Positions 4,498 to 63,192 of a stretch of DNA of 64,000 bases are shown here, one piece after another. The notes beneath the pieces were generated by a model. That model saw only the letters and a program-made list of their open reading frames with translations. It was not told where the DNA came from and did no database searches. Both the position numbers and the translations under genes were made by a program. The stretch is from Myxococcota bacterium (lineage in GTDB: Bacteria > UBA10199 > JADFYH01), in NCBI GenBank assembly GCA_052034865.1, contig JBPOIC010000018.1, positions 23,394-87,393 on the forward strand. The letters are read 5' to 3'. How positions within the stretch are numbered: the stretch's first letter is position 1; each line of letters begins with the position of its first letter.

Positions 4498-4571
4498 CGA
4501 GACGATTTTTATTTCTTTACTCTAGCCACAAGTGATTTGAAAAAATCCATCGATCAAAAAAAGGAGTTTTT

Positions 4572-34646: not shown

Positions 34647-36614
34647 ATGGAAAAGGTGGTCCCTTTAGGAAAAGTGGTGTGGGAAAGAACTGGGGTTGAA
34701 GTAGATGCTGCGAGAATTCTTCCTGTGGGTTCTGAGGGGTTAGCGAGCAGTCGATACGACCTGAATGAATCTGAAGTGGCAGTCGAGATTGCTGATGCCG
34801 GCCAGTTCAGGGCACTACTCAAGTCTCCAAATTTACCAGAATATTGCAGAGTTCGTGCCTCTGAGAATGAGCTGCGTGAATATGTTGCGGAAATGGGGAC
34901 GGATATCGAGAGTTTGATTGCCAGAGGGGAGAGTCGAATTACAGCTCAAGTATTAACTCAGAACGGATTTTCGGAAACTGATGCAGAGCAGTCTATGGGA
35001 ATTCTCGCAAGAGCGATGACCTACTATAACCATCTGGGTGAAAAACAGAGACAAGGCACAGTGAGGGGGCATTTAAACGGTGGAGAAGGGGCACAGCATT
35101 TTTTTAATGTGGCTATGGGCATTGGCTTGGATATCGTTATTGAGAGTTTCATGCAGCAAAGGGAGAATGTAGACGATGGTCAGTTGGGTTTTATTTTGAG
35201 TGCAGCCTATTATGTGAGTGGTGATACCGAGAGTGGTTTGGCTTTTTTAGAGCTTGCGGCCAGGCTTGAAAAGAGAAGCAGCTCATCTGGTGAGCGGGTC
35301 TGTTTTAGAAAATGTGAAAGCGCCCTGCTAGCTCGAGGAATGTTGAATAGGATGTACCAATTTTATGTAGAGCATGAGTGGTATGAAAAAGCTGCCGGGA
35401 TTTATTTTAGAGGATTTTTAGAACAGCCTCAAGAATTCCAGTTTACTCCCGATCATCAAATTTTTTCTTACCTGATTCCTAAACTGAATCGAATGATTCA
35501 AGATCGCTCTTTTTCTTCTCAAACCAGAAGAGCGGCTGCATTTCAAGTAATAGAGCTTGTAAGGGGCAATTCAAATGCGAATACACTCCAACTGTCTGCA
35601 CTTTTAGATCCTTCCACTCTCTCGTCTCTCATCAATCAATCAGACTACGAAGACTCCAAAAAACTACTTTTGGCTTTACAGAGTCTTGTTCAAAAAATCC
35701 CAAACTATTTGAATAGGGTCACCGAAGTTCTGGTCAATTTGGTGATGGAGAATGGATCAGAGGTTACGACTCTTCTTCCCAAAATTTTTCATGGACTCTC
35801 TCTCCAGGCAAAACGGGATCTTATTCTTAAGTTAAAAGAGAGATCTTCAGAGGATCCTAAACTCCAACTCCTACTCGACAGACTTGCGATCGGGCAGGCG
35901 GTGGCCGTGATTCCTCATCCACAACCTGAATTAGGAGTTTATGCCCCTCGCGTGTTGGCGTATCTGCGTGCTGTAGGAGCGAACCTCTATGGTCGTGGGA
36001 TCCCTCCTGTTTTAGATCCTGATTCAAAAGAATCTGGTTTGCGAATGCTTCTTGATTGTCTGGATCGTGTCCTTAAGAACATGGATCCCTCCGGGCTTGA
36101 GGACCCTCTAGGGGCAATCATCGAAGAGATAATAGTTCAGGCTGTCGCTGAGGGTTACGAAATCAAGATCCCCCAGGAAACTCCTTTACGTTTTTTATGG
36201 AGGAAGCTGTTTCCAGGAAAGTCCTTATTGCCAACACCACCCGAAGAAATGGCTAAGGCAATTCTTGAGAGAGTCTTAACGGATGAGCCAGATGAATTCC
36301 CGCCCTCCATTCAAGGGCTGGTCATTGAACTTCAGGCGTGGGGAACTTTGTTTAGAAAGGATGAAAATCCTGATGCGGTGCCTCAAGCCATGATGGCGGC
36401 ATTGATAACGGCTGATTTTGGATCTGATGGAAAAATCCATTGGGAGTCTTTGAGTCTCATGCCCGAATCGGGAGAAAGAGAAGTAAGTTCGGAGCTGCTA
36501 TCTTTGAGAGCTGCTGTTACAGGTGCTCTCGCAGAAGCTTTATCGGGCGGGGTAGATAAACATGGCCGGGGATTGGAGCGCCAACCACTTCCTCTTTTAG
36601 GAAAAGGAAGATAA
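34647..36614 (+). CDS. hypothetical 655-aa protein (no recognisable domain), inside the glnE-splitting insert
   Basis: Long ORF, mostly alpha-helical by composition, no signal peptide. Codon flavour (AGT/AGG/TTA-rich, many GGGG runs) differs from neighbouring housekeeping genes. Confidence 0.6.
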   Translation: MEKVVPLGKVVWERTGVEVDAARILPVGSEGLASSRYDLNESEVAVEIADAGQFRALLKSPNLPEYCRVRASENELREYVAEMGTDIESLIARGESRITAQVLTQNGFSETDAEQSMGILARAMTYYNHLGEKQRQGTVRGHLNGGEGAQHFFNVAMGIGLDIVIESFMQQRENVDDGQLGFILSAAYYVSGDTESGLAFLELAARLEKRSSSSGERVCFRKCESALLARGMLNRMYQFYVEHEWYEKAAGIYFRGFLEQPQEFQFTPDHQIFSYLIPKLNRMIQDRSFSSQTRRAAAFQVIELVRGNSNANTLQLSALLDPSTLSSLINQSDYEDSKKLLLALQSLVQKIPNYLNRVTEVLVNLVMENGSEVTTLLPKIFHGLSLQAKRDLILKLKERSSEDPKLQLLLDRLAIGQAVAVIPHPQPELGVYAPRVLAYLRAVGANLYGRGIPPVLDPDSKESGLRMLLDCLDRVLKNMDPSGLEDPLGAIIEEIIVQAVAEGYEIKIPQETPLRFLWRKLFPGKSLLPTPPEEMAKAILERVLTDEPDEFPPSIQGLVIELQAWGTLFRKDENPDAVPQAMMAALITADFGSDGKIHWESLSLMPESGEREVSSELLSLRAAVTGALAEALSGGVDKHGRGLERQPLPLLGKGR

Positions 36615-36734: not shown

Positions 36735-38243
36735 ATGGGAGATACAGTTCAAAGCAATACCTCAATCCCAAATAGTTACTCATCTAGCTCAAGTGAAATC
36801 CCTGTTTGCATAGGTGAATCCCGCACTCTCGTCGAAGCTTCACCAGATATAGATCCAGAGGAACTTAGAAACAGGTTCAATATTCCTCCAGATAAATTCT
36901 GCCGCGCTTTTTCTCACGCTGTTGGTAAGTATTATTTTGCAACCACTCAGGTTGAAGAATTATCCCCTTCACTTCCAGAATACTCACGACCCCCAAAAAA
37001 AGAATCGGGTGGAAACAACGGTCCAAAGAAGGTGGCCGATGGACTTCCTGACAATGTTGCTAGAAACTTTCTTATCGATACATTGGGACGTAAGCACGTT
37101 GAGCTAGCCTCTGGATCTCGAAATAAAATACTCGACCTCGCCACAGAAAATAAAAGGCTTCAGGATGAACTGAAAAGCCTCCAGGGTCTTGATGGCTCAG
37201 CGATTCATTTTTTCAGCTCCTGGACCGGAAAGGGAGTTGTGGGAGCAGCCTCGGCTGGATTTACTTTCGGTGTGCTCATTCCTAGTGCGAGAGATATTCA
37301 CACCATGATTCGTTTTGGGTTCAAGCCGTTCGGTGAAGCCAGTCTTTTGAGAGCGTATATCGATAAGTGTTTTAAGGAAGGTGATGAAGAGAGAAAGCTT
37401 AACTTGAGACAACTCAGAAGGTTGGAGCTTAGAAATGCACTCATCACAGCTCCTCTAGCGGCCGCAGCGATTGGCGCTGCTTATAAGGCGGAGCCTTATC
37501 TCTTCGGACCCAATGTGGCGAGTAAGGGCATTCAGGCGACTTCTCTCGCTTCTTCTTCACCTTTAGAGCAGCTCAAGAACATGCAGATTACGCTGCCTGA
37601 TCTTCCTCTTTCAGACTATCAAACACTAAAAACAAAAGATTTGAATGCATTGAGTGAAATTTATGATCGATTGAATCAGGCCCAGTCAGAATATCATAAC
37701 ATTGAACGCCGCCTGGTTTCTGAAAATGCAACTCTGAGAGAGCAGGTCAATTTGCTAAAGACGTCTCAAGAGAAAAGTCGTGGGGGGATGATCTACGCAG
37801 GCTTAGTCGGCACGGTGTTGGGCTTTGGTTATGCTGTCACCAAGGCTGAGGAAATGTATGGTTATTCATTGCTGCATCGTGCTGCGGAAAATACCCGCGG
37901 AAGAGTTAACGATAAGTTGCTTCGTATGCCCTGCCCGGAAGTGAATGTTCCAGGCTATGAACCAGCACCTGCAGCAGCACCAGATCCTATGCCAGTTAGA
38001 TTTCCTAAGCCTGAAGATTCGAGAGTATCTGATGCCCATGCCGACCCTGCCAGTGTGGCCGTGGGAGTTGCCGTTCCCACCGTTGCTGCGGCCGCGGTCG
38101 TGGGAACAGTGACAGCGAAAACCACCTTGTTTGCAAAACTCATGACCGGTTTGGGTGTTGCCGTAAGGGCGGTTGCGTCTGCTCCTGCTGCGGCGTTTGG
38201 ATTGATGATTACGTTTAAGAAAGATGATGTGCCGAGGGCTTAA
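36735..38243 (+). CDS. hypothetical 502-aa protein with coiled-coil region and Ala/Val-rich hydrophobic segments
   Basis: Hydrophobic Gly/Ala-rich stretches (GKGVVGAASAGFTFGVLIPSA; GMIYAGLVGTVLGFGYAV; C-terminal VAVGVAVPTVAAAAVVGTVTAKTTLFAKLMTGLGVAVRAVASAPAAAFGLMITF) flank a coiled-coil-like segment (LNQAQSEYHNIERRLVSENATLREQVNLL). Confidence 0.6.
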   Translation: MGDTVQSNTSIPNSYSSSSSEIPVCIGESRTLVEASPDIDPEELRNRFNIPPDKFCRAFSHAVGKYYFATTQVEELSPSLPEYSRPPKKESGGNNGPKKVADGLPDNVARNFLIDTLGRKHVELASGSRNKILDLATENKRLQDELKSLQGLDGSAIHFFSSWTGKGVVGAASAGFTFGVLIPSARDIHTMIRFGFKPFGEASLLRAYIDKCFKEGDEERKLNLRQLRRLELRNALITAPLAAAAIGAAYKAEPYLFGPNVASKGIQATSLASSSPLEQLKNMQITLPDLPLSDYQTLKTKDLNALSEIYDRLNQAQSEYHNIERRLVSENATLREQVNLLKTSQEKSRGGMIYAGLVGTVLGFGYAVTKAEEMYGYSLLHRAAENTRGRVNDKLLRMPCPEVNVPGYEPAPAAAPDPMPVRFPKPEDSRVSDAHADPASVAVGVAVPTVAAAAVVGTVTAKTTLFAKLMTGLGVAVRAVASAPAAAFGLMITFKKDDVPRA

Positions 38244-38527: not shown

Positions 38528-39925
38528 CTATTCAAACAATCTATCAAACGTATTTTTTGCAATCGTTGTAAAACGCGTGAGATCATCGAGCAGACGCTCG
38601 CGGGCTTCTTCGGGATCCTCTTCATAATAACCCATGCGACGGGCAACCGCCTGTTGATCGACAGGTGTGTAAGGAAGGGTTTGCGTTTGGGACTCCTGCA
38701 CCAGCTGCAGACGATGCTCCAGGCGTCTTAGGAAAAGATAGGCATCTTTGAGCTGATGGGCTTCCTGGGCAGGAACGATCTCCTGTTTGGTGAGCTCCTG
38801 AAGGGCTTTGAGAGTCGAAGGTGATCGCAATTGAGGTTTGGATCCGCCATAAAGCATCTGCAGGGCCTGCACAAAAAATTCGATATCGCGAATGCCGCCT
38901 TCTCCGAGTTTTACATTAAATCCTTTGAGTGAAGAAGATTTGATCGACTCATGTGCCTTGCGCTTCATCTCTTTCATCCGGTTGATCGCCCCCAGATCCA
39001 GATGCTTTCTCCACACAAATGGCTCTAGAATTTTTTCAAATTCTTCTCCCAATTCGAGATCACCGGCGATCGGTGCCGAACGAATCAGGGCCTGACGTTC
39101 CCATTCTTCACCGAAACTCTCATAATAATTTTCAATGGCGTTGAGAGAATTTGCGAGGGTTCCACTGCGTCCTTCCGGTCGCAAATTCAAATCCACCCGA
39201 TATAAAAATCCTTCCGGCCGATTTTGTGAAAGCAGACGAGTCAGTTTTTCGGAGAGCTTGATAAAATACTCATGCAAACTCACATCACGAGGCCCGTGCA
39301 CACGACCTTCATCCGTCGAATAGATATATTGAAGATCGATATCCGAAGAATAATTGAGCTCGTTGCCACTGAGCTTGCCCATTCCAATCACACAAAAACC
39401 ACAAAATTCTCCGGGATTCGAAAGAAAGGCCTCACCCCAAGTGGAGCGCATCTTCATTTTCTCATAAGCGAGGGCCGCGCGAACCAGTGCAATCGCAAGA
39501 TTTGAGATTTCGGAAAGAACTGTTTCCTGACCTGCCGCCTGCGAGAGGTCCTTAACGGTCAGTCGCAAAAACTCACGATATTTGTAGCGGCACAGATGCG
39601 AAGCAAATTCTTCATCAGAGAAGGACTCGAGTCTTTCGGGCGCAAGCAAAAGGTCTTCTTCAAAGTCGGATAGTTTCTTATCGGTTTCGATGCAGGGTGA
39701 TGCAACGAGGCTGTCTGCCTCGAGAGGGTAGCGAATCAAAAACTGGCTTAGGAAATGGGAGTTTCCAAAGATGCTTAAAAGACGCTTGGCATTGACTGGC
39801 TCCAGATCAAAGTCCTTGCCAGCAAAGTCGATGTATTTTTGGGAGAAAAGCAGAAAGTCTTCGTAGGCGCGCTGCGGCTCGCCGGACCAATCAAGGATTT
39901 GCCTGATTTGAGCATCGATCTTCAT
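38528..39925 (-). CDS. glnE: glutamine-synthetase adenylyltransferase GlnE, N-terminal (AT-N, deadenylylating) half as a stand-alone ORF
   Basis: 465 aa. VIGMGKLSGNELNYSSDIDLQYIY, LRPEGRSGTLANSLNAIENYYESFGEEWERQALIRSAPIAGD, KLGEGGIRDIEFFVQALQ match the GlnE AT-N domain. Confidence 0.8.
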   Translation of the reverse strand: MKIDAQIRQILDWSGEPQRAYEDFLLFSQKYIDFAGKDFDLEPVNAKRLLSIFGNSHFLSQFLIRYPLEADSLVASPCIETDKKLSDFEEDLLLAPERLESFSDEEFASHLCRYKYREFLRLTVKDLSQAAGQETVLSEISNLAIALVRAALAYEKMKMRSTWGEAFLSNPGEFCGFCVIGMGKLSGNELNYSSDIDLQYIYSTDEGRVHGPRDVSLHEYFIKLSEKLTRLLSQNRPEGFLYRVDLNLRPEGRSGTLANSLNAIENYYESFGEEWERQALIRSAPIAGDLELGEEFEKILEPFVWRKHLDLGAINRMKEMKRKAHESIKSSSLKGFNVKLGEGGIRDIEFFVQALQMLYGGSKPQLRSPSTLKALQELTKQEIVPAQEAHQLKDAYLFLRRLEHRLQLVQESQTQTLPYTPVDQQAVARRMGYYEEDPEEARERLLDDLTRFTTIAKNTFDRLFE

Positions 39926-46026: not shown

Positions 46027-47205
46027 ATGCAAAACATCAGGTGGGTGCGATTGATCCTGTTCGGTTTTCTGATCCATGCGATTGGAGCGGGTGTTTTTTC
46101 CTTGCGATCCCAGGCCTCCGAATCTTCTTCTGAGTCTTCCCTCAGCTCTTCTTCAGAACTTTCTTCCGATGCATCCTCTGTCTCTTCCGCAATTTCTCAG
46201 GACCAGAATGAGAAAGCGTTAGGATCTGTTTCGTTTTCGTTAACCCCAGATTTTACTAATCATGACTTGAATTCCGTTCATGTCGGTCCTCGTGAAAAAG
46301 TAGCCCTGTGTGTCCGGCTGAATGCTTCGGATCCTCGTCTGAAGCGCGCCTTTCTCTCCCTGAAAAAAATCGATTTGGCGCTGGAGAGCTCCGGGGATCT
46401 TCCCCAAACTCTGAAAGGATCGATTGTTTCCAAAAGAGGAATCCTGGTTCCCGATGAGCAAGGGTGTTTTCGGGGTACGATAAAAATCACCGATCAAATC
46501 CTGCCAGGAAAGTATGCGCTCACCGAGCTGGACCTGGGTCTTTTGTCCAATAAATCTCTTAGTCTTAGGGAAGGGTTGAGAGAGATGGTGCTGGGGGTTT
46601 TAGAGATTGAAAATCCGGATAAAACTCTCAAGGTTCCGACGGTCAAGGCGATACAATCCAAAACATCCACGCGTCGAATGGTGGGCCAATGGGGACGACG
46701 ATTGGCCGTTAAGCCTCGCTTTAAGGTTTTGTTTTCTAATCTAAATAAACCTTTGGAATACAATAAATTACAAATTTTCTTTAAAGTTTATATTGATGAG
46801 ATTTTGGTGGATGAAATCGAGTCAAAATGCTGGTTCTCTTCTTTTTATTCGGCCCACTGTTCTCTTCTTTATGCCCGCTCTGATTCCAGTTTTAAAGGAA
46901 GACGCCTGCAGTTTGTTTTAAGTTCAGTCGCTCTTTCCGATCGGTTTGGGCATGAGCAGGAATGGACTGGGGCTGAAGAATTGTCCTCATTATCAGAGAA
47001 CGGTAAGGTTTTGTCGTATCACTACTATCCCAGTTCAAAGGTTCTCCACACCGATCCGAAACGGACGGAAGGTGAGCTTATCGAATGGCCCGAGGTTGTG
47101 CCGCTTCCGGTGCCGCCGACTCAGGAACATACGCCTGCTTTTCCCGGATCGGAAGAAACGGGATCAGACTTAACCCCGGAATCGACACCAGAAAGCAGAC
47201 CGTAA
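46027..47205 (+). CDS. hypothetical secreted protein with Ser-rich low-complexity N-terminal region
   Basis: 392 aa with signal peptide (MQNIRWVRLILFGFLIHAIGAGVFS) and an SESSSESSLSSSSELSSDASSVSS tract. The 3' end overlaps the convergent ampG-like gene by 128 nt, so the exact extent is uncertain. Confidence 0.45.
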   Translation: MQNIRWVRLILFGFLIHAIGAGVFSLRSQASESSSESSLSSSSELSSDASSVSSAISQDQNEKALGSVSFSLTPDFTNHDLNSVHVGPREKVALCVRLNASDPRLKRAFLSLKKIDLALESSGDLPQTLKGSIVSKRGILVPDEQGCFRGTIKITDQILPGKYALTELDLGLLSNKSLSLREGLREMVLGVLEIENPDKTLKVPTVKAIQSKTSTRRMVGQWGRRLAVKPRFKVLFSNLNKPLEYNKLQIFFKVYIDEILVDEIESKCWFSSFYSAHCSLLYARSDSSFKGRRLQFVLSSVALSDRFGHEQEWTGAEELSSLSENGKVLSYHYYPSSKVLHTDPKRTEGELIEWPEVVPLPVPPTQEHTPAFPGSEETGSDLTPESTPESRP

Positions 47206-52665: not shown

Positions 52666-52854
52666 ATGTCTAAAAAAATTCAATGTCCGATTTGTAAAAA
52701 AGAAACAACCTGGGAAAATAATCCTTTCCGTCCTTTTTGCAGTGAACGGTGTCAAACCAGAGATCTTGGAAACTGGGCCATTGGGGGATATTCCGTCCCC
52801 GTTGAAGAAGATGGAGAGATACAGGAGACTCAAGCTGAAGAGCGTTTTTCTTGA
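52666..52854 (+). CDS. yacG: DNA gyrase inhibitor YacG (zinc-ribbon)
   Basis: 62 aa. IQCPICKKETTWENNPFRPFCSERCQTRDLGNWA matches the YacG consensus (CP.C......SPFRPFCS.RC...DLG.W). RBS ggagg. Confidence 0.85.
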   Translation: MSKKIQCPICKKETTWENNPFRPFCSERCQTRDLGNWAIGGYSVPVEEDGEIQETQAEERFS

Positions 52855-52881
52855 AAAAGAGATCTTGCGAAATATCTTTTG

Positions 52882-53583
52882 CTACTTCAGTTTTTGTTTC
52901 ACAAAACAAAAATAATGAATGCTGAGCCCCATGCGTTTCCACTTGGTTTCGAAATAGGTGGGATAGAGGGATTTGCCTTCCTGAAGTTTCCACATCTTCG
53001 GATCGAAAACTGAGGAAATCTGGCTGGAATAGTCCGGATGATCCGTGGCGATCCACAAACTTCCACCGGGTTTCAGAGAGGAATGGATCAGACGAACCCG
53101 CTCCTCATTGATCAGGCGATGTTTGTTGTGCCGCCTCTTGGGCCAGGGATCCGGAAATAAAATATAGGCCTCCGATAAACATTCAGGCTTAAGGATCTTT
53201 GGCAGGCTGTAGCGTGCATCCCCGTGTATGAGTTGAACATTGCCCAGCGGAATCGTGTCGATTTTTTCCCGTATGCGAAAATATCGCCCGCGCTTAAGCT
53301 CGATGGCAATAAAGAGCTTATGCGGATGTTGGGGGGCGAGCCAGGATAAAAACGCTCCGTTTCCAGGCCCAATCTCTAGCACCCAATCAGAAAACGAATC
53401 ATAAAGAGGAGGTTGAGGATAGGTATCAAAGATATTTTCGATTTTTTCAGGAATCATGAGGGCGATGTGTTTAACCTGATGACACAAGGTTGGGAAGAGG
53501 GGTTTTTTTGCCCCACGCACCTTGGCTTGCGACTTTTTCCAAACCTGCTCTTCGATCTCGTGCTTGACGCCCAACTCATTCAA
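52882..53583 (-). CDS. trmB: tRNA (guanine46-N7)-methyltransferase TrmB
   Basis: 233 aa. LEIGPGNGAF SAM motif and the diagnostic FPDPWPKRRHNKHRL block. Confidence 0.9.
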   Translation of the reverse strand: MNELGVKHEIEEQVWKKSQAKVRGAKKPLFPTLCHQVKHIALMIPEKIENIFDTYPQPPLYDSFSDWVLEIGPGNGAFLSWLAPQHPHKLFIAIELKRGRYFRIREKIDTIPLGNVQLIHGDARYSLPKILKPECLSEAYILFPDPWPKRRHNKHRLINEERVRLIHSSLKPGGSLWIATDHPDYSSQISSVFDPKMWKLQEGKSLYPTYFETKWKRMGLSIHYFCFVKQKLK

Positions 53584-53621
53584 AGGTTACTTGTCGCGTC
53601 CCTGTTTCAAGTCAAATATCA

Positions 53622-53708
53622 GGAAGGATGGCCGAGTGGTTGAAGGCGCTCGCCTCGAAAGCGAGTATATCTTAACGGGTATCGTGGGTTCGAATCCCAC
53701 TCCTTCCG
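53622..53708 (+). tRNA. tRNA-Ser (anticodon CGA), class II tRNA with long variable arm
   Basis: GGAAGGA acceptor stem pairing with TCCTTCC plus discriminator G. D-arm GCCGAGTGGTTGAAGGC. Anticodon stem CTCGC/GCGAG with loop CT-CGA-AA. Long variable arm. T-arm GGGTTCGAATCCC. No encoded CCA. Confidence 0.85.
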
Positions 53709-53730
53709 TTTCAATTTTTTCCCAATCCTC

Positions 53731-54741
53731 ATGCTCCAAAACCTCCAACACTTTCGCGATACCGTTAATCTCAGCCGGTATCATCAACAGCAAAATGGTT
53801 TTTACGAAAGTTATTTCCAGAGGGCGAATCATCCTGACCGGCCCTTGGCATTTTGGATTCGATATACGATTTTCAGTCCGCGCTCTCATCCGGAACTTGC
53901 GAAGGGAGAGTTGTGGGCGATTTTTTTTAACGGCGAGACCCATCAGCATTGCGTAGTGAAAAAAGAATATCCCCTTGCAGACTGCCAGTTCTCCACCTCA
54001 AGTTTTGAAGTGAGAGTTGGGGACGCTACCTTATCCGCTTCTTCCATGCAGGGTTCGGCTCAATCTGAAACGCATCAGCTGAGTTGGGATCTTCGCTTTC
54101 GTTCAGAGTCCAAACCGCTTTTTTTTACTCCACTCAATCGCCTTAAAACCCGCTTTCCCTCGGGCAAGGTTCTTGTCGCTCTTCCGTTGGCTCACTTTCA
54201 GGGAGAGATGAAAATCGATGGAGAAAAAATTGAGATTCAAAACTGGGTGGGCAGTCAGAACCACAACTGGGGATCCCGTCACACCGATCACTATGCGTGG
54301 GGTCAAGTTGCAGGGTTTGAAAATGCCCCCGATACTTTTCTGGAAGTTGCGACCGCGCGTCTGAAAGTGGGGCCGCTCTGGACGCCCGCATTAACTCCTT
54401 TGGTGTTGTGGCACAAGGGGAGCGAGTATGAGCTGAACTCGCTGTCGCAGGCCTTTTGGTCTAAGGGGTCCTTTCGCTATTTTGATTGGAAATTTTGTGC
54501 CGAAACAAAAGGAATTCAGATTGACGGAAGAATTTTTGCCCAGGCCGAAGATTTTGTGGGACTTCGGTATTTCAATCCTCCAGGGGGATTTAAATACTGT
54601 CTAAATTCAAAGCTTGCCAGTTGCGAGCTGAAACTCACTCATAAAATTTCTTCTCAAACTGAGAAGCTGGTGGCCAAAAGATGTGCCGCCTTTGAGATTC
54701 TAACCGAGGATTCTTCTCACGGAATTCCAATCTCTGCCTGA
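53731..54741 (+). CDS. hypothetical protein (336 aa)
   Basis: Clean ORF immediately downstream of tRNA-Ser. No recognised domain. His/Trp-rich beta-like composition. Confidence 0.5.
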   Translation: MLQNLQHFRDTVNLSRYHQQQNGFYESYFQRANHPDRPLAFWIRYTIFSPRSHPELAKGELWAIFFNGETHQHCVVKKEYPLADCQFSTSSFEVRVGDATLSASSMQGSAQSETHQLSWDLRFRSESKPLFFTPLNRLKTRFPSGKVLVALPLAHFQGEMKIDGEKIEIQNWVGSQNHNWGSRHTDHYAWGQVAGFENAPDTFLEVATARLKVGPLWTPALTPLVLWHKGSEYELNSLSQAFWSKGSFRYFDWKFCAETKGIQIDGRIFAQAEDFVGLRYFNPPGGFKYCLNSKLASCELKLTHKISSQTEKLVAKRCAAFEILTEDSSHGIPISA

Positions 54742-54799: not shown

Positions 54800-54932
54800 T
54801 AAAGGCTGTTCAGTCAGGTCCTACGCAAACAAGACCTACGAACCCCGCCAGGTCCGGAAGGAAGCAACGGTAATAGGAACCTTGTTGTGCCGTGGGGAAC
54901 CCCTGTTCGCAAGGGCAGGGGGTGCCTGGCTT
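54800..54932 (+). ncRNA. ffs: signal recognition particle RNA (4.5S/ffs); boundaries approximate
   Basis: Contains the universally conserved SRP domain IV motif CCAGGUCCGGAAGGAAGCAACGG (54848-54870). Ends in a G/C-rich segment followed by TTTTT at 54931-54935. Sits directly upstream of dnaX, the conserved ffs-dnaX-ybaB-recR arrangement. Confidence 0.65.
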
Positions 54933-54976: not shown

Positions 54977-56644
54977 ATGTCTTATCAGGTCATTGCTCGA
55001 AAATACCGTCCTCAGAATTTTGAAGAAGTTGTAGGACAACAGGCCGTGGTGACGACCCTTAAGCAGGCCATCCAGTCGGGGCGTGTGCACCATGCCTATC
55101 TTTTTTCAGGAGCGCGCGGAATTGGAAAAACCTCACTTGCTCGCATCTTTGCAAAGGCCTTGAATTGTGAGCAGGGACCGAGCCCGATACCCTGCAATCA
55201 ATGTGCTCAATGTCGTGAGATTACCTCAGGAAATTCGCTGGATGTTCAGGAGATCGACGGGGCATCCAATACTTCGGTTGAGGATGTTCGTGAGCTCCGC
55301 GAAGGGCTTAAATATCTGCCGGCATCCGGGCGCTACAAGATTTATATCATCGATGAAGTTCACATGCTTTCCACCAGCGCCTTCAATGCCTTGCTAAAAA
55401 CATTGGAAGAGCCGCCGGCCCATGTTTTATTCTGCTTTGCCACCACCGAATCACATAAAATTCCGGCGACCATCCTCTCACGCTGTCAGCGCTTTGATTT
55501 AAGACGACTCTCAACCGATCAAATCCTTTCCACCCTTTCCTCCATCTGTGAAAAAGAAAAAGTACGCTTCGATGAGGATGCCTTGCTGCTGATTGCCCGT
55601 GAATCCGAAGGCTCGCTACGCGATTCGCAAAGCCTGCTCGATCAGGCAATTTCTTACTCATCCGGTGAGATCCGTGTTGCTCAGGTTTCCGAGATGCTTG
55701 GTCTTGTGAATAGTCAATATTTGAATCGGTTGACCGATGAGGTTTTGGGAAAAAATGTTTTAGGCGCGCTTGAGATTTTAAAGGAGGTTTATGAGCGAGG
55801 GCATGACTTGCGGCAGCTCATGATTCAGTGGCTGAACTATTGGCGAAATCTGCTAGTTTATCAAAGTACTCAGGAAGAGAAAATCCTGAACGATTTAACC
55901 GAGTCAGAGCGTCAGGAAATTTTGCGTCAGTGCGGAAGGGTTTCGCTTCCCGCCCTTGATCTGGGCTTTCATTTTCTCTATCGTGGCGTTGAAGAAATCG
56001 CGCGCAGCGAATTCCAAAAACTCATTCTTGATGTGCTGGCGGTTCGGCTTTGCCATTTATCCGATATTAAAACACTAGAAAGTATTCTGGAAAATTCTGG
56101 ATCTTCCGCGGATTCATCCAATAGTCCTCCAGCCACTTCGGGGCAGGGAACTACTCAACGGCCCTCTTCTTTTTCTCAGAAAGAAAATGCTGCTTCTGTG
56201 AGTCGCTCGTCCGCTGAAAGTACCCAATCTTTTCAGACAGTCTCTGAAGAAGCTCCTCATCCGGTCAAAGTTTCAGCACATTTTTCAAATGAGGTGGAAA
56301 AGTTTTTCAGCTACGCCAATCAAAAACGTCCGCAGCTTGGATCGCTCGTCCAGCACCTCGAAGCTGCCACTCTCGATGGCAATCGACTGATTTTACAGTG
56401 CGAAAAAGAAGGGATCTGGATGGATTTGCTGATGGAAAGAAAAAATCAGATTGTAGAGATGGCAGCAGATTTCTGGAAAAGACCGATCGAGGTCCAGATT
56501 CAGAATCTTCCCATTTCGGTTGAAAGCTCCGAAGTCTACCTTCTTAAAAAAAGCAAATCTTTAGATACAAAACCGTCTGAAAAAAATATTATTCATTCTG
56601 CGATTCAGATCCTGAACGCAACAATTGAGGAGAACAAAGCATGA
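54977..56644 (+). CDS. dnaX: DNA polymerase III subunit gamma/tau
   Basis: 555 aa. Walker A GARGIGKTS, zinc module CNQCAQC, DEVHMLS, SRCQRF sensor motifs. Confidence 0.95.
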   Translation: MSYQVIARKYRPQNFEEVVGQQAVVTTLKQAIQSGRVHHAYLFSGARGIGKTSLARIFAKALNCEQGPSPIPCNQCAQCREITSGNSLDVQEIDGASNTSVEDVRELREGLKYLPASGRYKIYIIDEVHMLSTSAFNALLKTLEEPPAHVLFCFATTESHKIPATILSRCQRFDLRRLSTDQILSTLSSICEKEKVRFDEDALLLIARESEGSLRDSQSLLDQAISYSSGEIRVAQVSEMLGLVNSQYLNRLTDEVLGKNVLGALEILKEVYERGHDLRQLMIQWLNYWRNLLVYQSTQEEKILNDLTESERQEILRQCGRVSLPALDLGFHFLYRGVEEIARSEFQKLILDVLAVRLCHLSDIKTLESILENSGSSADSSNSPPATSGQGTTQRPSSFSQKENAASVSRSSAESTQSFQTVSEEAPHPVKVSAHFSNEVEKFFSYANQKRPQLGSLVQHLEAATLDGNRLILQCEKEGIWMDLLMERKNQIVEMAADFWKRPIEVQIQNLPISVESSEVYLLKKSKSLDTKPSEKNIIHSAIQILNATIEENKA

Positions 56645-56952
56645 ATATTCAAAAAATGATGAAACAGGCTCAAGATCTTCAAAAGCAGATTTTAAAACAG
56701 CAAGAAGAGCTGGCCAAACAGACCTACGAGGCCTCCAGCGGGGGAGGCATGGTGAGTGCCGTGGTCAATGGCAAAAATGAGGTCGTTTCATTGAAAATTG
56801 AGAAGGATGTGGTCAATCCTGAAGATATCGAGATGCTTCAGGATCTTGTTTTGGCCGCCGTCAACGAAGCCAATCATCGGGCCAAAGAGGCGATGGAAAA
56901 AGAGATGAGCGGTCTGATGGGTGGGATGGGAAAGATTCCGGGTCTGTTTTAG
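56641..56952 (+). CDS. ybaB: nucleoid-associated protein YbaB/EbfC
   Basis: 103 aa. MMKQAQDLQKQI...GGGMVSAVVNGKNEV.SLKIEKDVV..EDIEMLQDLVLAAVNEA... typical of YbaB. Start overlaps the dnaX stop. Confidence 0.9.
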   Translation: MNIQKMMKQAQDLQKQILKQQEELAKQTYEASSGGGMVSAVVNGKNEVVSLKIEKDVVNPEDIEMLQDLVLAAVNEANHRAKEAMEKEMSGLMGGMGKIPGLF

Positions 56953-56969: not shown

Positions 56970-57560
56970 ATGTCTTCTTCACTCGATTTACTCATTCAGG
57001 AACTCGCCCGTTTGCCAGGGGTGGGCGAAAAAACAGCTACGCGTCTGGCGTTTTATATTTTGCGCTCTCCTAAAAATTACGCTGAGAACCTGGCCCATGC
57101 CCTGCGTGCTCTGGTTCAGAAAACGCATTTTTGCAGTATCTGTCAGAATTTTACCGAGACAGATCCTTGTCCAATTTGCTCCGATCCCAGGCGCGATCGC
57201 GATGTTATTCTGGTTATCGAAGGTCCTCAGGAGATGCGCACGATTGAACAGGGGAAATCTTACCGCGGGCTTTATCACATTCTCCACGGAGCCCTTTCTC
57301 CCCTGGACCGCATCGGACCTGAAGAACTTAAGATCAAAGATCTCATTCATCGGCTCTCGCAAGCTCCCGTGCGAGAGATCATTCTGGCGACAAATACGAA
57401 TGTAGAAGGAGAAGCTACCGCGCTTTATCTCACCCGACTGATTAAACCCCTTCAGATCAAGATATCCCGAATTGCGATGGGAATCCCAGTGGGTGGGGAT
57501 CTCGAATATATCGATTCGGTGACCTTGCAACGCGCGATTGAGGGTAGGCGCGAGCTGTAG
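56970..57560 (+). CDS. recR: recombination protein RecR
   Basis: 196 aa. HhH N-terminus LIQELARLPGVGEKTATRLAF, C4 zinc finger CSICQNF...CPIC, Toprim ILVIEGPQE. Confidence 0.95.
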   Translation: MSSSLDLLIQELARLPGVGEKTATRLAFYILRSPKNYAENLAHALRALVQKTHFCSICQNFTETDPCPICSDPRRDRDVILVIEGPQEMRTIEQGKSYRGLYHILHGALSPLDRIGPEELKIKDLIHRLSQAPVREIILATNTNVEGEATALYLTRLIKPLQIKISRIAMGIPVGGDLEYIDSVTLQRAIEGRREL

Positions 57561-57565
57561 CAATC

Positions 57566-58129
57566 TTACTTCACCTCCAGCGTTCCCTTCATCGTCGTCG
57601 CATGACCCGGAAAACTACAAAGATAGGGATAACTTCCCGATGTGGACGGAGCCCTGAAGCTGATTTCGTCAGATTCTCCCGGATTGATCATTTTGGTATG
57701 GGCGAGGATGTTGGGTGAATCCGGAAGCCATCCTTTCTCTGCACCCGCCTGCATGGCTGCCTGAGCGACATCATTTTCTGTTCCTGTTTTCACCAATACC
57801 CAGTTGTGCTGAAGAGCCGAGGTTTTCGATGCATTGTTGTGGAAGGTGAGTTTGACCGCCTGTCCTGGCTTGGCGGCCAGGGTTGTTTTGTCGAATGTGA
57901 GACTATCCCCTGAAGTCCCAATTTCAAGTGAAACGCTTTGGGGTTGAGTTTCAGCAGGTGAGACTGGAGGTGTAGGGGGAATGGGAGAAGTAGGAGAGGT
58001 CGGGGGAATATCCGTTCTTTGGATCTCAGGTGGGGGATTGTTTTGTTGACGGGGAGAACAGCCATTCCAGACCCATGAAAGAGTGAAAATGGACATAAGG
58101 GTCAATATAGCAGCTTGATGAATCATCAT
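57566..58129 (-). CDS. azurin-like blue-copper protein, lipoprotein with Pro-rich linker
   Basis: C-terminal domain ...HNWVLVKTG....AHTKMINPGESDEISFRAPS.GSYPYLCSFPGHATTMKGTLEV aligns with azurin (copper ligands His, Cys, His, Met). N-terminal signal plus Cys, then a PPPEIQRTDIPPTSPTSPIPPTPPVSP linker. Confidence 0.8.
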   Translation of the reverse strand: MMIHQAAILTLMSIFTLSWVWNGCSPRQQNNPPPEIQRTDIPPTSPTSPIPPTPPVSPAETQPQSVSLEIGTSGDSLTFDKTTLAAKPGQAVKLTFHNNASKTSALQHNWVLVKTGTENDVAQAAMQAGAEKGWLPDSPNILAHTKMINPGESDEISFRAPSTSGSYPYLCSFPGHATTMKGTLEVK

Positions 58130-58285
58130 AGATCCTCCTTTTGGTTTTCTTCCTAAATTACAAAGTAGTTCGCACCTGAGATGGGGGCAAGGGGCAAAGC
58201 CAGGAAGGAATAAGGTGAGTCTGATTTTGGATTAGGCTTCAAAATATGGAATGCTGCTCCAAAAAAATCTTATGAGACTCATGCG

Positions 58286-58729
58286 ATGAATGGGATGAAA
58301 AGTTCTTCACACATTTTTCAGGGATTTGGGGGCCTTGTAATGCTGGTTCTGATCTTTGTAGCTGCTCCATTTCTTGGAATGGGTGCCTATGGTCTCTATC
58401 GAAACCTGGAGAGACTCAAAACCTATATTCATGTCTCTGGAGTTGTGGTTGCGAACCAATCCGACTACTCAGATTCGGCTTTATTCCCGAGAGTGGAGTT
58501 TAAAACACGGGAAGGAGAGAGAATGAGCTTTCTGGATGGAGTGGGATCTTATCCAGCAGATTACATGGTGGGGGAGTCCGTTCAGGTCATTTATAATTCC
58601 GCAAACCCTAAAATGGCTGAAATTAATGCATCTAAGCGCCTCTGGCTTGTTCCCATCCTTTTTTTGGTCTTGGGGGCCAGCTTTGTTGGGGTGGGGATTT
58701 TCATTGCCAGAAAAATTAATTCTGTCTGA
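58286..58729 (+). CDS. DUF3592-like membrane protein (two TM helices flanking a beta-rich extracytoplasmic domain)
   Basis: 147 aa. TM1 LVMLVLIFVAAPFLGMGAYGLY, core ...HVSGVVVANQS.....FPRVEFKTREGERMSF......G.SVQVIYNSANPKMA, TM2 LWLVPILFLVLGASFVGVGIFIA. Confidence 0.5.
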   Translation: MNGMKSSSHIFQGFGGLVMLVLIFVAAPFLGMGAYGLYRNLERLKTYIHVSGVVVANQSDYSDSALFPRVEFKTREGERMSFLDGVGSYPADYMVGESVQVIYNSANPKMAEINASKRLWLVPILFLVLGASFVGVGIFIARKINSV

Positions 58730-58799
58730 TCAAAAAGGTTCGGGTTTATTTTATCCTTTTACGAAGGAAGTAAAATAAGATGTCGATCAGAAGTACATA

Positions 58800-58829
58800 T
58801 TGACAGATTCTTTGTCCGTTCCCTAAAAT
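58800..58829 (+). promoter_or_regulatory. sigma70-like promoter of mglA (TTGACA, 18 nt spacer, TAAAAT); predicted start about 7 nt downstream, at the ATG, so probably a leaderless mRNA
   Basis: Near-consensus -35 TTGACA (58800-58805) and -10 TAAAAT (58824-58829). Only 7 nt (ccgcgcc) separate the -10 from ATG 58837 and there is no Shine-Dalgarno sequence. Confidence 0.45.
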
Positions 58830-58836
58830 CCGCGCC

Positions 58837-59424
58837 ATGTCATTCACTAACTACAACGATAAAGAAATAAACTTTAAACTCATCTATTACGGAGCAGCCC
58901 TCTCTGGAAAAACCACTTCCCTTCAGCTCATCCACAAGCGTGCAGACGGAAAAGATGTTCGCAAATTGAGCATTGATACAGGGAATGAACGCACGCTTTT
59001 TTTTGATTTTGTTCCTCTCTTTCTCTCCGAGGTCAACGGCTTTAAAACCCGCTTTCATCTTTATACAGTCCCAGGCCAGGTTTTATATGACGATTCGCGA
59101 AAACTCATCATCAAGGGAGTTGATGGAATCGTGTTTGTCGTCGATTCGCTCATTGAAAAGATGGATGCAAATTTAAAGAGCCTTGAGAATCTGAAGATCA
59201 ATCTCATTGAAGAAGGAATTGCCCTCGAAAAACTTCCCATCGTTTTTCAGTACAACAAACGCGATATGCCAAATGCCGCCAATCTTGATGCCCTTCGAAA
59301 GCTGATGAATCCCTGGGGCTTTCCCGATTTTGAATCGATCGCCACCACTGGAGAAGGAGTTTTTGAAGTTTTTAAGGAGTTGGCAAAAAAAGTGGTGAAA
59401 GATCAGTTAAAAAAGGCGAGCTGA
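58837..59424 (+). CDS. mglA: Ras-like small GTPase MglA (mutual gliding-motility protein A family)
   Basis: 195 aa. Near-collinear with Myxococcus MglA: MSFTNYNDKEINFKLIYYGAALSGKTTSLQ..., TLFFDFVPLFLSEVNGFKTRFHLYTVPGQVLYDDSRKLIIKGVDGIVFVVDS, QYNKRDMPNA. P-loop is GAALSGKT (Myxococcus: GPGLCGKT). Confidence 0.9.
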   Translation: MSFTNYNDKEINFKLIYYGAALSGKTTSLQLIHKRADGKDVRKLSIDTGNERTLFFDFVPLFLSEVNGFKTRFHLYTVPGQVLYDDSRKLIIKGVDGIVFVVDSLIEKMDANLKSLENLKINLIEEGIALEKLPIVFQYNKRDMPNAANLDALRKLMNPWGFPDFESIATTGEGVFEVFKELAKKVVKDQLKKAS

Positions 59425-59467
59425 TTATTCTTAGATAGAGCCTCGCTCCCAAACAGTTCCAATACAT

Positions 59468-59494
59468 AAATCCTGCTTCGGCAGGATTTTTTTT
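59468..59494 (+). terminator. rho-independent terminator downstream of mglA
   Basis: aaatcctgc-ttcg-gcaggattt followed by ttttt. Confidence 0.8.
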
Positions 59495-59535
59495 ATCCAT
59501 TTTGAAGAATCGAAATGGAGAGAAAAACAAGGTCG

Positions 59536-59895
59536 TTATGAAATTGGGATCCTGGATGAAAATCCCTCTTGATAGGAGTGTCGATACTCAATGCTCTCTT
59601 CATCATAGCGCCAGCAGTAAAATCCTTTCCCATTATCAAAATCTACCAACCAGATTCCTTTGGGATGACACCCCAGTCGTGTAATCTTTTCTCCCCAGCG
59701 ATTGAGAAGAATGGAAATTTCCATCTCCGTCTGTTTCCATTTTTCAGAATTTTCTTCAGTGTGTTTGAGCTTTTGCTCAAGAAGCAAAAATTTTCCGAGT
59801 GCGTCTTTAGTTATTTTACGGATGACAGGGAGAAGGTCGTTGGCTTCCTTAAGCGTGAAGATGCGGGGCGAGAAAAGATGAATCACATCGGTCAT
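59536..59895 (-). CDS. hypothetical protein (possibly DUF2203-like)
   Basis: 119 aa ORF convergent with mglA. ...FTLKEANDLLPVIRKIT...GIWLVDFDNGKGFYCWRYDEESI... pattern. Family assignment tentative. Confidence 0.4.
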   Translation of the reverse strand: MTDVIHLFSPRIFTLKEANDLLPVIRKITKDALGKFLLLEQKLKHTEENSEKWKQTEMEISILLNRWGEKITRLGCHPKGIWLVDFDNGKGFYCWRYDEESIEYRHSYQEGFSSRIPIS

Positions 59896-60105: not shown

Positions 60106-63100
60106 ATGACAGATCCTATTTCTGCGAAGGTTCCAGGTCCGGATTCCTCAGGTGCTCTCGATCCGTATAGTACAACTCATCCTCCCATGAGCCAAAGTAG
60201 GAATGAGGGTCTTCCTTTCAATCCTTTCCCAACTGTTGCCGAGCGCGATCGATTTGCACACCTGATTCCAGAGCCGTCTTTACCGCCGTTTCATTTTCGC
60301 CTTTGGGATCCACGAAATTCCAGATTTCTTCTTAATCCTCCTCAGGATTTATCTTCCTCTTCCATTTCATCCGATGATTCCGATGCTCTTCAATTGGCAG
60401 CGGTTCTGTTTTGCGATGCACTCGCACTTATCGTTCGGGATACATGGAAAAAAATGGATACAGGTGCCGTCTTAAATGATGACCCTTCTATTCATCTTCA
60501 CTTGAGTCTTTTTGAAAGCAGGACGGAACGGGCCAGATGGCGTGAGAAGGTAAGCTCCTTGTTAAGCACACCCCATATTAAGAAAAGTATGGGAGAGCGC
60601 GATGCTGTCGCGGCAGTAAAACAGATCATTCTGCTTCAGCAGATGGCCTATAGTGAACCAGCTGCTTTTGCATTGTTGACGGAGCTTCGTGCATCTCTGG
60701 TTGATGCGATGAATAATCTCCGTTCTCAGGCATCAGGATTTTCAACGCCCATGCTGGTCAGAAATCTTACTGTCCAGATTCGACTGTTGGATACGGCCTG
60801 GGATGATATTGTTTCGCAAAAAATTAAGAGGGCTCGTGAAAATATGGTTCGGGCTCCATCAACCTCGGTTGATTTGTTTCTGGAGATTCGAATGGAAATC
60901 ATTCGTGTCACAAAAACGGGAAGGGCGGCAGAGAAACAATTGCAGGGAATCAGGAAACTAACAGCCGGATTTCTCGAGTATCAGGAAGGTTTTGCAATAG
61001 AAAAAGACACGCTTCTTGCACAAGTGGATCAGGCCTTTGATGAAGAACTGATAGCGAGTGTGGATCTCTTAAAGGAAGAAGCAGCAACGAAACCAGAGGC
61101 TGTCTTAAGTTTGGCATCCTTATCTGATGTCATCCGAAAATATGAAGAGAAGATTGCTGAGATGATGCCTGATAAACCCCCGCGAGACCTCGCTCACCTA
61201 CACGTCGAACTTGGGTTCAAATCTCACCAGGCCTGTCTTGCAATCCGGCCAGCCTATGTTTTCAATGAGGATACTTCTCCTTCCCATTTAAGAAAAATGA
61301 TCCAGGTATTGGGGTTTCTTGCCAAAAGAGAAAACCCTTCGGCTCTTCTCGAATTGAAAAAAATTGCTGTTAGCACGGCAAGTAAAGATGCAGTGCTTGT
61401 AATCGCTAAATTGGCTGATGATGAAGCAAAGCCCAATCTTCGACTCGAGGCAGAGTTGGTACTTTACTCAACCCTTCGTGAAATTGATGAAGTTCATGTT
61501 TTTACTCAGCCAGGCAGAGTTTGCGCTGAAGAAGTGCAGCGCCACATTTTACAACAGGACAAATCTAGAAAAGGACGGGTATCCCCTTCTCAAATCATTC
61601 AAAAATATTTTCAGGATAATGATCGGATTTATTCTGACTCACCACTTCCACGAGTGCAGAAGTCTCCTCCCCGTATCAGCCAGTGGCAGGGTTTTTCTAA
61701 ATTAAAGGCTGAAGGGAATTTGATTTCTGCCATGGAAATCCTTGGAGGACAGGAACGAATTGCTGAAATAATTTCTGAATGGTTAAGAGATGGAAAGATG
61801 GAAATGGGTGGCTTACGCTCCGAAGTAGAATTTGCAAATATGATTGCTCAAAGGGTTCAGTCTAACCTTAAGGAAATGAGCGCAGACCAGATGACAGATT
61901 TTATTGCGGGGGAGTTACTGCAAACGAACGAGGAGGAAGCGATTGGAGTCATTAGTCCAAGATTCATGGTGGATCTGCTGAAGGAAAATGCAAGGTATCA
62001 GCCCATGGCCACTGCCCAACTCGCCCGCCTGCAAAGTCGTTTGATTTTGACTGATAGCATGACAGGTCCGGAAAGTCCTCTCTATCAGCTTGTTGATGAA
62101 ATCCATCATTATTTAACGAATCTCGATCCTGCATTTAACGAGGAAAATCCTTTGAGTGCAGGGGCCCTGGAAGGATTGGCGATTGAAGGAAATGAGCGGG
62201 GCCTTGACCATTGGGTAAGAATGGCGGCCCAGGGAGGTCAGAAGAAAGACCTCGTTGTCCTGGCAAGAATCGCGGATCGGGGCGCCCAATCGATTCGTCC
62301 TCGCGCTGTGCTTAAGCTTCAGATGGTTTTATATGCCAAAGCCGAAGAGGGAAATGAGGCGGCAGCTCATCTCCTCAAATCCATTCTGGAAAAAGGAAAT
62401 CAATGTCGATCTTTAGAGAGCTTGGTTGAACAAGAATTGCAAAGTAAAATTTCTTCGGAAGGACCCCCTTCTGCAGTGACTGCTTATCTCAAAACACATC
62501 CATCTGGAGTTCGCCTTTCTCCGGCACTTCGAGAAGAGCTTTTGAAATCTCCTACCCGACTTGGCAGGTTGTATCATTTATACCAGCATGTTCTCGATTC
62601 AGAATCACCGGATGCCCTCTACCTTTTTGGAATTATCGCCTCCGAAGAACCTGATGATCCGGCTGTGATTCATGCACGTCATCTCGCCATTTTCATCCCA
62701 AGGAATCTAATCCTAAAAGCCTTGATGACTGAAGATGATTTGGAAGCAGAAAACCCACGTCAAGAAAATTTGTTAAGATTTTTATCTGTTTATGATCAGC
62801 TGTTTGAGGAGCATCGAGAAAAAGAAGAAAGAGTTCTAAGAACAACCAGGATCAGTGATTCGGGACTCATGAAATTGAGGTTAGGATGGCACCAAAAAGC
62901 TCTTGAGGCTTTAAAGGACGCTGCAGATCAGGAAAATCAGGAAAAACAATATCCTGCCGAACGATCTCCTCCTCTAGCTCGAAACGAGCAAAGCGATCCG
63001 CTGCCCGGTGAAGGTAAAGACAGAGTTGAATGGACTGAACCTCCTAGGATCATCCATGGCAAGGCCGATCTTCCAGGAAATGCTGGAAGCTATAAGGTGG

Positions 63101-63192
63101 TAAGGGGAGGGGAGCCAGGTCAAGTAGAAGTGCTTGGGGGAAGAAGTGAAAGACCTGGTGCGGTTACATTAGGGAGAATCATCCGTAAATAA
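60106..63192 (+). CDS. large hypothetical protein (1028 aa), predicted all-alpha, no signal peptide
   Basis: Long uninterrupted ORF with RBS (ggaagct...ATG). Pro/Ser-rich N-terminal 100 aa, then helical repeats. Same atypical codon flavour as the 34647-38243 genes. Confidence 0.6.
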   Translation: MTDPISAKVPGPDSSGALDPYSTTHPPMSQSRNEGLPFNPFPTVAERDRFAHLIPEPSLPPFHFRLWDPRNSRFLLNPPQDLSSSSISSDDSDALQLAAVLFCDALALIVRDTWKKMDTGAVLNDDPSIHLHLSLFESRTERARWREKVSSLLSTPHIKKSMGERDAVAAVKQIILLQQMAYSEPAAFALLTELRASLVDAMNNLRSQASGFSTPMLVRNLTVQIRLLDTAWDDIVSQKIKRARENMVRAPSTSVDLFLEIRMEIIRVTKTGRAAEKQLQGIRKLTAGFLEYQEGFAIEKDTLLAQVDQAFDEELIASVDLLKEEAATKPEAVLSLASLSDVIRKYEEKIAEMMPDKPPRDLAHLHVELGFKSHQACLAIRPAYVFNEDTSPSHLRKMIQVLGFLAKRENPSALLELKKIAVSTASKDAVLVIAKLADDEAKPNLRLEAELVLYSTLREIDEVHVFTQPGRVCAEEVQRHILQQDKSRKGRVSPSQIIQKYFQDNDRIYSDSPLPRVQKSPPRISQWQGFSKLKAEGNLISAMEILGGQERIAEIISEWLRDGKMEMGGLRSEVEFANMIAQRVQSNLKEMSADQMTDFIAGELLQTNEEEAIGVISPRFMVDLLKENARYQPMATAQLARLQSRLILTDSMTGPESPLYQLVDEIHHYLTNLDPAFNEENPLSAGALEGLAIEGNERGLDHWVRMAAQGGQKKDLVVLARIADRGAQSIRPRAVLKLQMVLYAKAEEGNEAAAHLLKSILEKGNQCRSLESLVEQELQSKISSEGPPSAVTAYLKTHPSGVRLSPALREELLKSPTRLGRLYHLYQHVLDSESPDALYLFGIIASEEPDDPAVIHARHLAIFIPRNLILKALMTEDDLEAENPRQENLLRFLSVYDQLFEEHREKEERVLRTTRISDSGLMKLRLGWHQKALEALKDAADQENQEKQYPAERSPPLARNEQSDPLPGEGKDRVEWTEPPRIIHGKADLPGNAGSYKVVRGGEPGQVEVLGGRSERPGAVTLGRIIRK

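Follow-up and report, generated by a model that had tools for sequence, protein, structure and literature searches.

The GTPase MglA and its GTPase-activating protein (GAP) MglB are a model for Ras-like polarity switching in bacteria, and natural variants without MglB show this switch rewired into a static pole marker. One such variant, the MglA of Bdellovibrio bacteriovorus (Bd3734), carries Ser21, has no mglB and controls prey invasion (Milner et al. 2014, PMC3983030). A permanently guanosine triphosphate (GTP)-bound state has been proposed for it, dnaX-recR-mglA synteny has been reported for Bdellovibrio and other deltaproteobacteria, and of 70 species with MglA, 9 have no MglB and 5 of those 9 carry Ala or Ser at residue 21 (PMC3983030). 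A census of the family counted 59 of 449 proteins as orphans with no MglB within four genes, SofG among them (Wuichet & Sogaard-Andersen 2014, PMC4316618). Here we analyse an mglA gene in a 64,000-nt stretch (the window) of contig JBPOIC010000018.1, assigned to a Myxococcota bacterium of the UBA10199 lineage. A reading of the letters alone, below called the sequence-only reading, had singled out the range 58730-59494, which covers the promoter, coding sequence and terminator of this gene, and had likened it to the MglB-less mglA of Bdellovibrio; that parallel holds, and includes the dnaX-recR-mglA synteny (PMC3983030). We judge it probable that the gene specifies a partnerless, mostly GTP-bound MglA with Ala21 that acts as a pole marker and is made from a short-leader, monocistronic mRNA.

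By alignment, the gene is a full-length MglA orthologue in its ancestral locus, as the sequence-only reading had claimed. Residues 1-193 align with the M. xanthus MglA structures 6hjh, 6h17 and 5ymx (E 2e-71, phmmer) and residues 1-187 with Thermus thermophilus MglA 3t12 (E 1e-61, phmmer), and the best PDB matches after MglA are Rab27B and Arl2, at E values of about 1e-5. Pfam returns weak Arf and Ras matches alone, which is usual for MglA, and tblastn finds no second MglA-like open reading frame (ORF) in the window. Comparison with characterised MglA proteins, the check which that reading had itself proposed, maps the arginine finger, Thr54, Thr78, Gln82 and the NKxD motif (M. xanthus numbering) as intact. 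Window residues R52-T53 align with M. xanthus R53-T54, the intrinsic arginine finger and G2 threonine; the G3/PM3 motif reads YTVPGQ, in which the catalytic Gln is kept and Thr replaces Asp; and the guanine-specificity motif NKxD is NKRD. Thr in place of this conserved Asp is described as an MglA feature in PMC3000849. R53, T54, T78, Q82 and NKxD are invariant in 59 of 59 members of the clade to which the window protein belongs. Within this clade the nonsynonymous divergence (dN) of mglA is 0.13-0.33 and the synonymous divergence (dS) is saturated, so that dN/dS can be given as an upper bound only, of about 0.04; mglA is under purifying selection. GTP binding and hydrolysis are predicted for the window protein, which as part of the explanation judged probable above would be a functional polarity GTPase. 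The clade is further marked, beside G21A, by C13F, G65S, F84L, A87D and L180F (M. xanthus numbering) and by a one-residue deletion at M. xanthus position ~46; F84L and A87D sit in switch II, just past the catalytic Gln.

Direct reading of the codons bears out the GAALSGKT P-loop first noticed in the letters, in which Ala21 (GCC, 58897-58899) occupies the position of M. xanthus Gly21 and Ras Gly12. The part of the earlier claim that placed Ala at this glycine position stands; the hydrolysis defect cited alongside it belongs to G21V, not to Ala; in Thermus MglA this Val substitution reduces kcat 7-fold (cited in PMC3000849). The earlier framing as a single-gene oddity does not survive, since both Ala21 and the missing adjacent mglB are common to the whole clade, which lends them comparative support, and this kind of MglA is already in the literature. 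The clade comprises the 59 closest homologues, which are monophyletic in a neighbour-joining (NJ) tree and come from uncultured, UBA10199-like metagenome-assembled genomes (MAGs). The window protein itself is encoded on a MAG contig at NCBI and also in Logan run SRR34217545; among named genomes, the closest MglA proteins are those of 'bacterium STL-UBA2' (80% identity), an 'uncultured Pseudomonadota' MAG (77%) and 'Deltaproteobacteria bacterium HK-STAS-UBA10199-1' (67%). At residue 21, 54 clade members have Ala, 3 have Gly and 2 have Pro; position 20 varies among P, S, A and T, and position 22 holds L or Q. The three Gly21 members (P0022, P0024, P0057) nest inside the clade in the NJ tree. Of the best 150 representatives of the wider family at 50% identity, 140 have Gly at position 21, 5 have Ala, 2 Ser and 1 Pro; this set is too collapsed to resolve the clade and was used for residue-21 frequencies alone. 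Most of these representatives (P0121-P0270) span 300-890 aa and have their MglA domain in residues 1-190, which reflects either real C-terminal extensions and fusions or read-through calls picked as the longest cluster members.

The absence of mglB was examined by several routes. A hidden Markov model (HMM) of MglB was built from M. xanthus MglB and 64 ORFs lying directly beside mglA in other lineages; Pfam assigns representative seeds to Robl_LC7. This HMM gave no match at E<=10 in the six-frame translation of the 64-kb window, whereas among the first 86 sequences it recovered an mglA-abutting ORF in 71. Alignment of 171 window ORFs of 80-400 aa against the 65-sequence MglB alignment (hhalign) reached at most 3.1% probability, and no Robl_LC7 came out of Pfam scans of most of the ~55 ORFs treated as genes in the window. 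No Roadblock/LC7 gene lies within four genes of mglA, the adjacent genes encoding DUF3592, azurin and DUF2203, and mglB is found within 10 kb in 0 of ~11 distinct clade loci. Thus, the claim that mglA is an orphan stands for the adjacent genes and for the window, and its reach beyond these is +-10 kb in relatives only. A divergent MglB was also considered among nine small ORFs (4153-4497, 4517-4843, 7142-7579, 12800-13381, 13378-13704, 22055-22366, 24313-24810, 52670-53056 and 53587-53949) and rejected, as Pfam found nothing in them at E<=0.01 (E<=0.1 for two of the nine) and their hhalign probability was at most 3.1%.

Comparison across 170 sequences, counting loci with at least 600 nt upstream, ties residue 21 to the presence of the partner gene. 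An mglB abuts mglA in 125 of 139 Gly21 loci, 0 of 14 Ala21 loci and 0 of 1 Pro21 locus, and the Ala/Pro21 loci amount to ~11 distinct ones from a single clade, so the counts are not independent events; conversely, residue 21 is Gly in all 125 loci with an adjacent mglB. Bdellovibrionota-like MAGs are among the Gly21 loci that lack mglB, and so is the clade member L008, the locus of P0024. On this comparative evidence, Ala21 combined with no adjacent mglB is a lineage trait, and because Gly21 clade members are also without adjacent mglB, the pattern suggests that loss of the GAP preceded the change in the P-loop. The gene order points to where the loss would have occurred. The genes dnaX-ybaB-recR precede mglA in all clade loci, recR-mglB-mglA is kept in L028, L029, L100, L108 and L120 from other lineages, and recR is followed directly by mglA in clade loci L005, L007, L008, L167 and L168 and also in Bdellovibrionota-like loci. 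The window mglA thus keeps its place in the ancestral order dnaX-ybaB-recR-[mglB]-mglA, from which mglB is absent. A separate locus, L092 (metagenome contig Ga0056123_1055515, 282-845), encodes an MglA with the P-loop GPSLSGKT (Ser21, the Bdellovibrio residue) ~3 nt after recR and without mglB; it groups with the Pseudobdellovibrionaceae-like L016 in the NJ tree.

The near-consensus promoter that the sequence-only reading had placed against the ATG is borne out, with 7 nt between the end of its -10 box and the start codon (Table 1), and the spacing of promoter and ATG gains comparative support from 12 orthologous loci. The pattern TTGACA-N18-TANAAT occurs once in the 64 kb, against 0.03 expected, and 12 of 12 distinct clade loci have TTGACA, exactly 18 nt and TA[ACG]AAT upstream of mglA, matching once per locus and at 8-11 nt from the ATG in the 11 loci other than the window. 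These loci span 62-100% protein identity and include the Gly21 locus L008 and a subclade with the P-loop GPAQSGKT. The promoter is invariant although the upstream genes differ (recR, HicA, a 462-aa reverse-strand gene, DUF3592), its flanking sequence is unalignable across loci, and the DUF2203 upstream regions of the same loci, taken as a negative control, share nothing. Because hexamers, spacer and ATG distance were kept while flanks and synonymous sites diverged, this comparative footprint is strong evidence for a functional promoter, with a predicted leader of 0-4 nt. A Shine-Dalgarno (SD) sequence that might have been overlooked was looked for, and no SD core lies between promoter and ATG. 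All clade loci use ATG as the start codon, the 5' 50 nt of the mRNA are essentially unstructured (-0.6 kcal/mol), and Rfam finds no RNA element in the leader. An SD core (>=4 nt within 20 nt) precedes 19 of 47 window gene starts; this lineage seems to depend largely on initiation without an SD, some of the starts perhaps being mis-assigned, and an SD-less mglA is not unusual in the source genome, since these 19 genes alone have the core. Downstream, the terminator hairpin folds at -12.5 kcal/mol (z = -3.95; a stability reached by 1 of 200 shuffled sequences) and sits between the convergent mglA and DUF2203 genes. The mglA mRNA, with a predicted start, is probably leaderless or near-leaderless and monocistronic.

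Three observations in and around this region are recorded beside the promoter. A tiny ORF at 58781-58804 (+), reading MSIRSTY before its stop and preceded by GAAGGAAG, overlaps the mglA -35 box and is probably due to chance, because the region is not conserved in relatives. In L004 the database MglA call (P0008, 10001-10663) is 220 aa long, its extra 25 N-terminal residues spanning the conserved promoter, and the true start there is almost certainly the methionine of MSFINY at 10076. For DUF2203, a promoter placed as for a leaderless mRNA (TTGACT-18-TAAAGC, at 6 nt from its ATG) was considered and rejected, as it is not conserved.

We consider it probable that one explanation covers these features. 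The cognate GAP gene mglB would have been lost from the recR-mglB-mglA position in this lineage; without the GAP, residue 21 would no longer have been held as Gly and would have become Ala in most of the clade; and the protein would be GTP-bound most of the time. MglA would then mark a pole in a static or slowly decaying manner and recruit effectors, the role proposed for its Bdellovibrio counterpart, for whatever process it may control, in a genome that would lack MglB throughout and with no fast MglB-driven oscillating switch. The gene would form a monocistronic unit with its own sigma-70 promoter, a 0-4 nt leader, no SD and an intrinsic terminator. The GTP-bound bias of an Ala21 MglA is expected by analogy with G21V MglA and with Ras, in which any side chain at position 12 (G12A, G12S, G12V) hinders the geometry of the arginine finger and Gln and gives a GAP-insensitive protein. 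Several points weigh against this explanation. No side chain is smaller than that of Ala, and MglA provides the Arg finger itself, which makes the strength of the effect uncertain; the strict conservation of Arg53 and Gln82 would be unexpected were hydrolysis irrelevant. The Pfam scans, over most of the window ORFs taken as genes, show no type IV pilus, gliding/motility, RomR-like or TPR genes that would hint at the process controlled. The MglB search covers 64 kb here and +-10 kb in relatives, and an unlinked mglB or other Roadblock GAP is possible. The NJ tree is a rough one, and the Ala21 loci are not independent of one another phylogenetically. As to transcription, no strong terminator lies between the DUF3592 stop (58729) and mglA, making read-through transcripts possible, and with the canonical +1 at 58836 (a C) the leader would be 1 nt long.

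The question of the missing partner admits a reading in which mglA is an orphan only locally, an MglB or other GAP encoded elsewhere tolerates Ala21, and the protein remains a normal cycling switch. Unlinked MglB homologues are common, orphans making up 328 of the 749 in the genomes surveyed (PMC4316618), a fraction of each genome was searched here, and the invariance of Arg53 and Gln82 in the clade is what would be expected if catalysis still matters. We nevertheless regard this as unlikely: no non-Gly MglA with an adjacent mglB was found, all mglB-adjacent loci being Gly21; the variation at residues 20-22 in the clade (A/S/P/T, A/G/P and L/Q) looks like relaxed constraint at a GAP-sensitive site; and published surveys place A/S21 MglA in genomes without any MglB (PMC3983030). 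If the partner was indeed lost, the order of events could have been the reverse, with Ala21 selected first, giving a GTP-locked MglA and an MglB that was useless and then lost. A Ser21-first order has been suggested for Bdellovibrio by Milner et al. (PMC3983030), and Ala21 is nearly fixed in the clade. This order is distinctly unlikely here, given that the Gly21 clade member P0024 is already without adjacent mglB, as are the Gly21 Bdellovibrionota-like loci L010, L016, L017, L101, L118 and others; GAP loss without change at residue 21 is common, and the converse was never seen.

For the transcript, the alternative is that the main start lies upstream, for example with DUF3592, and that mglA is translated from a long leader by SD-independent internal initiation rather than being leaderless. 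The lack of a convincing terminator after DUF3592 would permit this, and the low share of window genes with an SD core means that SD-less internal initiation must be common. We consider it very unlikely, as the hexamers, the 18-nt spacer and the short ATG distance are invariant in 12 loci with differing upstream genes, the pattern is unique in each locus, and the upstream region of the DUF2203 control is not conserved. Beyond the explanation that we prefer, of GAP loss followed by Ala21 in a mostly GTP-bound pole marker, lies a broader proposition that we hold as doubtful, namely that the Gly12-equivalent residue was replaced at least twice independently, across phyla, after loss of MglB (Ser in Bdellovibrio; Ala or Pro here, perhaps repeatedly) without the protein being simply locked on. 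With the cis Arg finger and Gln invariant, such proteins might be slow intrinsic timers or might use a non-Roadblock GAP, and they would be expressed from a dedicated, conserved leaderless promoter.

The features of the locus are collected in Table 1. The azurin and DUF3592 neighbours noted from the letters are confirmed by Pfam and NCBIfam, and homologues of both occur, among the 170 sequences, in the window and its duplicate L001 only. Since the contents of the recR-mglA gap differ between clade loci, it looks like a recurrent insertion site; a mobile-element origin of the azurin/DUF3592 insertion was rejected, as flanking repeats were not found.

Table 1. Features of the mglA locus and of the recR-mglA gap in relatives. 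Positions are those of the window, or of the relative's locus where one is named.
Feature	Position	Strand	Detail
ffs (signal recognition particle RNA)	54812-54909	+	Rfam
dnaX	54977-56644	+	Pfam
ybaB	56641-56952	+	Pfam
recR	56970-57560	+	Pfam
azurin-like cupredoxin	57566-58129	-	Pfam, NCBIfam
DUF3592 membrane protein	58286-58729	+	Pfam, NCBIfam
sigma-70-type promoter	58800-58829	+	TTGACA 58800-58805, 18 nt, TAAAAT 58824-58829; 11/12 match
mglA	58837-59424	+	195 aa + stop, ATG start
P-loop codons 19-26	58891-58914	+	gga gca gcc ctc tct gga aaa acc = GAALSGKT
intrinsic terminator	59468-59497	+	9-bp GC-containing hairpin 59468-59489, UUCG loop, then U run
DUF2203, convergent with mglA	59536-59895	-	Pfam E 9e-21
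recR-mglA gap, window	57561-58836		azurin + DUF3592
recR-mglA gap, L002	6095-10000		1094-aa CLIPPER/Calx-beta protein
recR-mglA gap, L004	7592-10075		FGE-sulfatase + HicA toxin
recR-mglA gap, L166	3017-4491		462-aa unknown protein

Several neighbours were considered as partners and set aside. DUF2203 adjoins mglA in 12 fetched sequences (duplicates included), all with >=77% MglA identity; it was rejected as a conserved partner, being confined to the closest subclade, convergent, and absent in L168, L169 and L008, and its position next to mglA is treated as plain synteny. The 1028-aa protein encoded at 60106-63192 (+) was rejected as an SgmX-like effector, since neither Pfam nor the PDB gave a match and none of the relatives has a homologue in the neighbourhood of mglA, and a 295-aa gene after mglA in L169 was set aside since it is not conserved elsewhere. 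Upstream, tRNA-Ser(CGA) (53622-53708, +) and then ffs lie directly before dnaX, an ordinary conserved arrangement.

The window at large is housekeeping DNA, with ubiquinone genes, a trp operon, glnE, addAB-like genes and ffs-dnaX-ybaB-recR. GlnE and GlnD_UR_UTase domains are present in each of two genes 4 kb apart, 33339-34529 (-) and 38528-39925 (-), which resemble split halves of glutamine synthetase adenylyltransferase; between them lie opposite-strand ORFs of 655 aa (34647-36614, +) and 502 aa (36735-38243, +) with no Pfam match. An RHS-repeat protein of 471 aa (9942-11357, +) stands amid housekeeping genes. Large ORFs without a Pfam domain are found at 16293-19091 (+, 932 aa), 46027-47205 (+, 392 aa) and 60106-63192, as well as from 63207 to the window end (+, >328 aa).

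In summary, MglB-less MglA with Ala or Ser at residue 21 is already described, and the window provides a further example that does not overturn current understanding. What our analysis adds is the lineage-wide distribution of this state, the loss of mglB from its slot, the proposed order of events, the invariance of Arg and Gln, and the footprinted promoter; our literature search found no paper on the biochemistry of Ala21 MglA, on leaderless mglA or on MglA in UBA10199. The Bdellovibrio-type state, with no GAP and a substitution at the Ras G12 position, would thereby be fixed in a second, uncultured phylum-level lineage, in which the window MglA offers a natural A21 allele and its promoter a well-footprinted, conserved example of leaderless geometry.

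Set beside the described systems, the window MglA is closest in its features to that of Bdellovibrio, with which it shares a non-Gly residue 21, the lack of mglB in a dnaX-recR-mglA neighbourhood, the catalytic Arg, Thr and Gln and a predicted GTP-bound bias. It differs in having Ala rather than Ser and in belonging to another phylum-level, UBA10199-like lineage; the Bdellovibrionota-like MglA proteins in our sample are 48-53% identical to it, and their genes start ~10 nt or less from the recR stop, two of these recR-coupled genes with GTG, whereas the window gene has its own conserved promoter at the ATG and the clade starts with ATG. M. xanthus MglA (MXAN_1925) has the same length, Arg finger, Thr78 in G3, Gln82 and NKxD, but its P-loop is GPGLCGKT with Gly21 and its gene is co-transcribed with the GAP gene as mglBA. 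T. thermophilus MglA, through its G21V data the reference for the biochemistry of position 21, has a homologous G domain and, unlike the window protein, Gly21 and coupling to MglB; in loci from Deinococcota the start of mglA overlaps the stop codon of mglB. The window protein is changed at the same P-loop position as Ras with G12 substitutions, although the Arg finger of Ras comes in trans, from its GAP, and that of MglA, Arg53, is supplied in cis. Finally, it resembles the orphan MglA proteins of the family census in having no MglB within four genes (PMC4316618), but it is an MglA orthologue in the ancestral locus, unlike SofG, which is a diverged paralogue.

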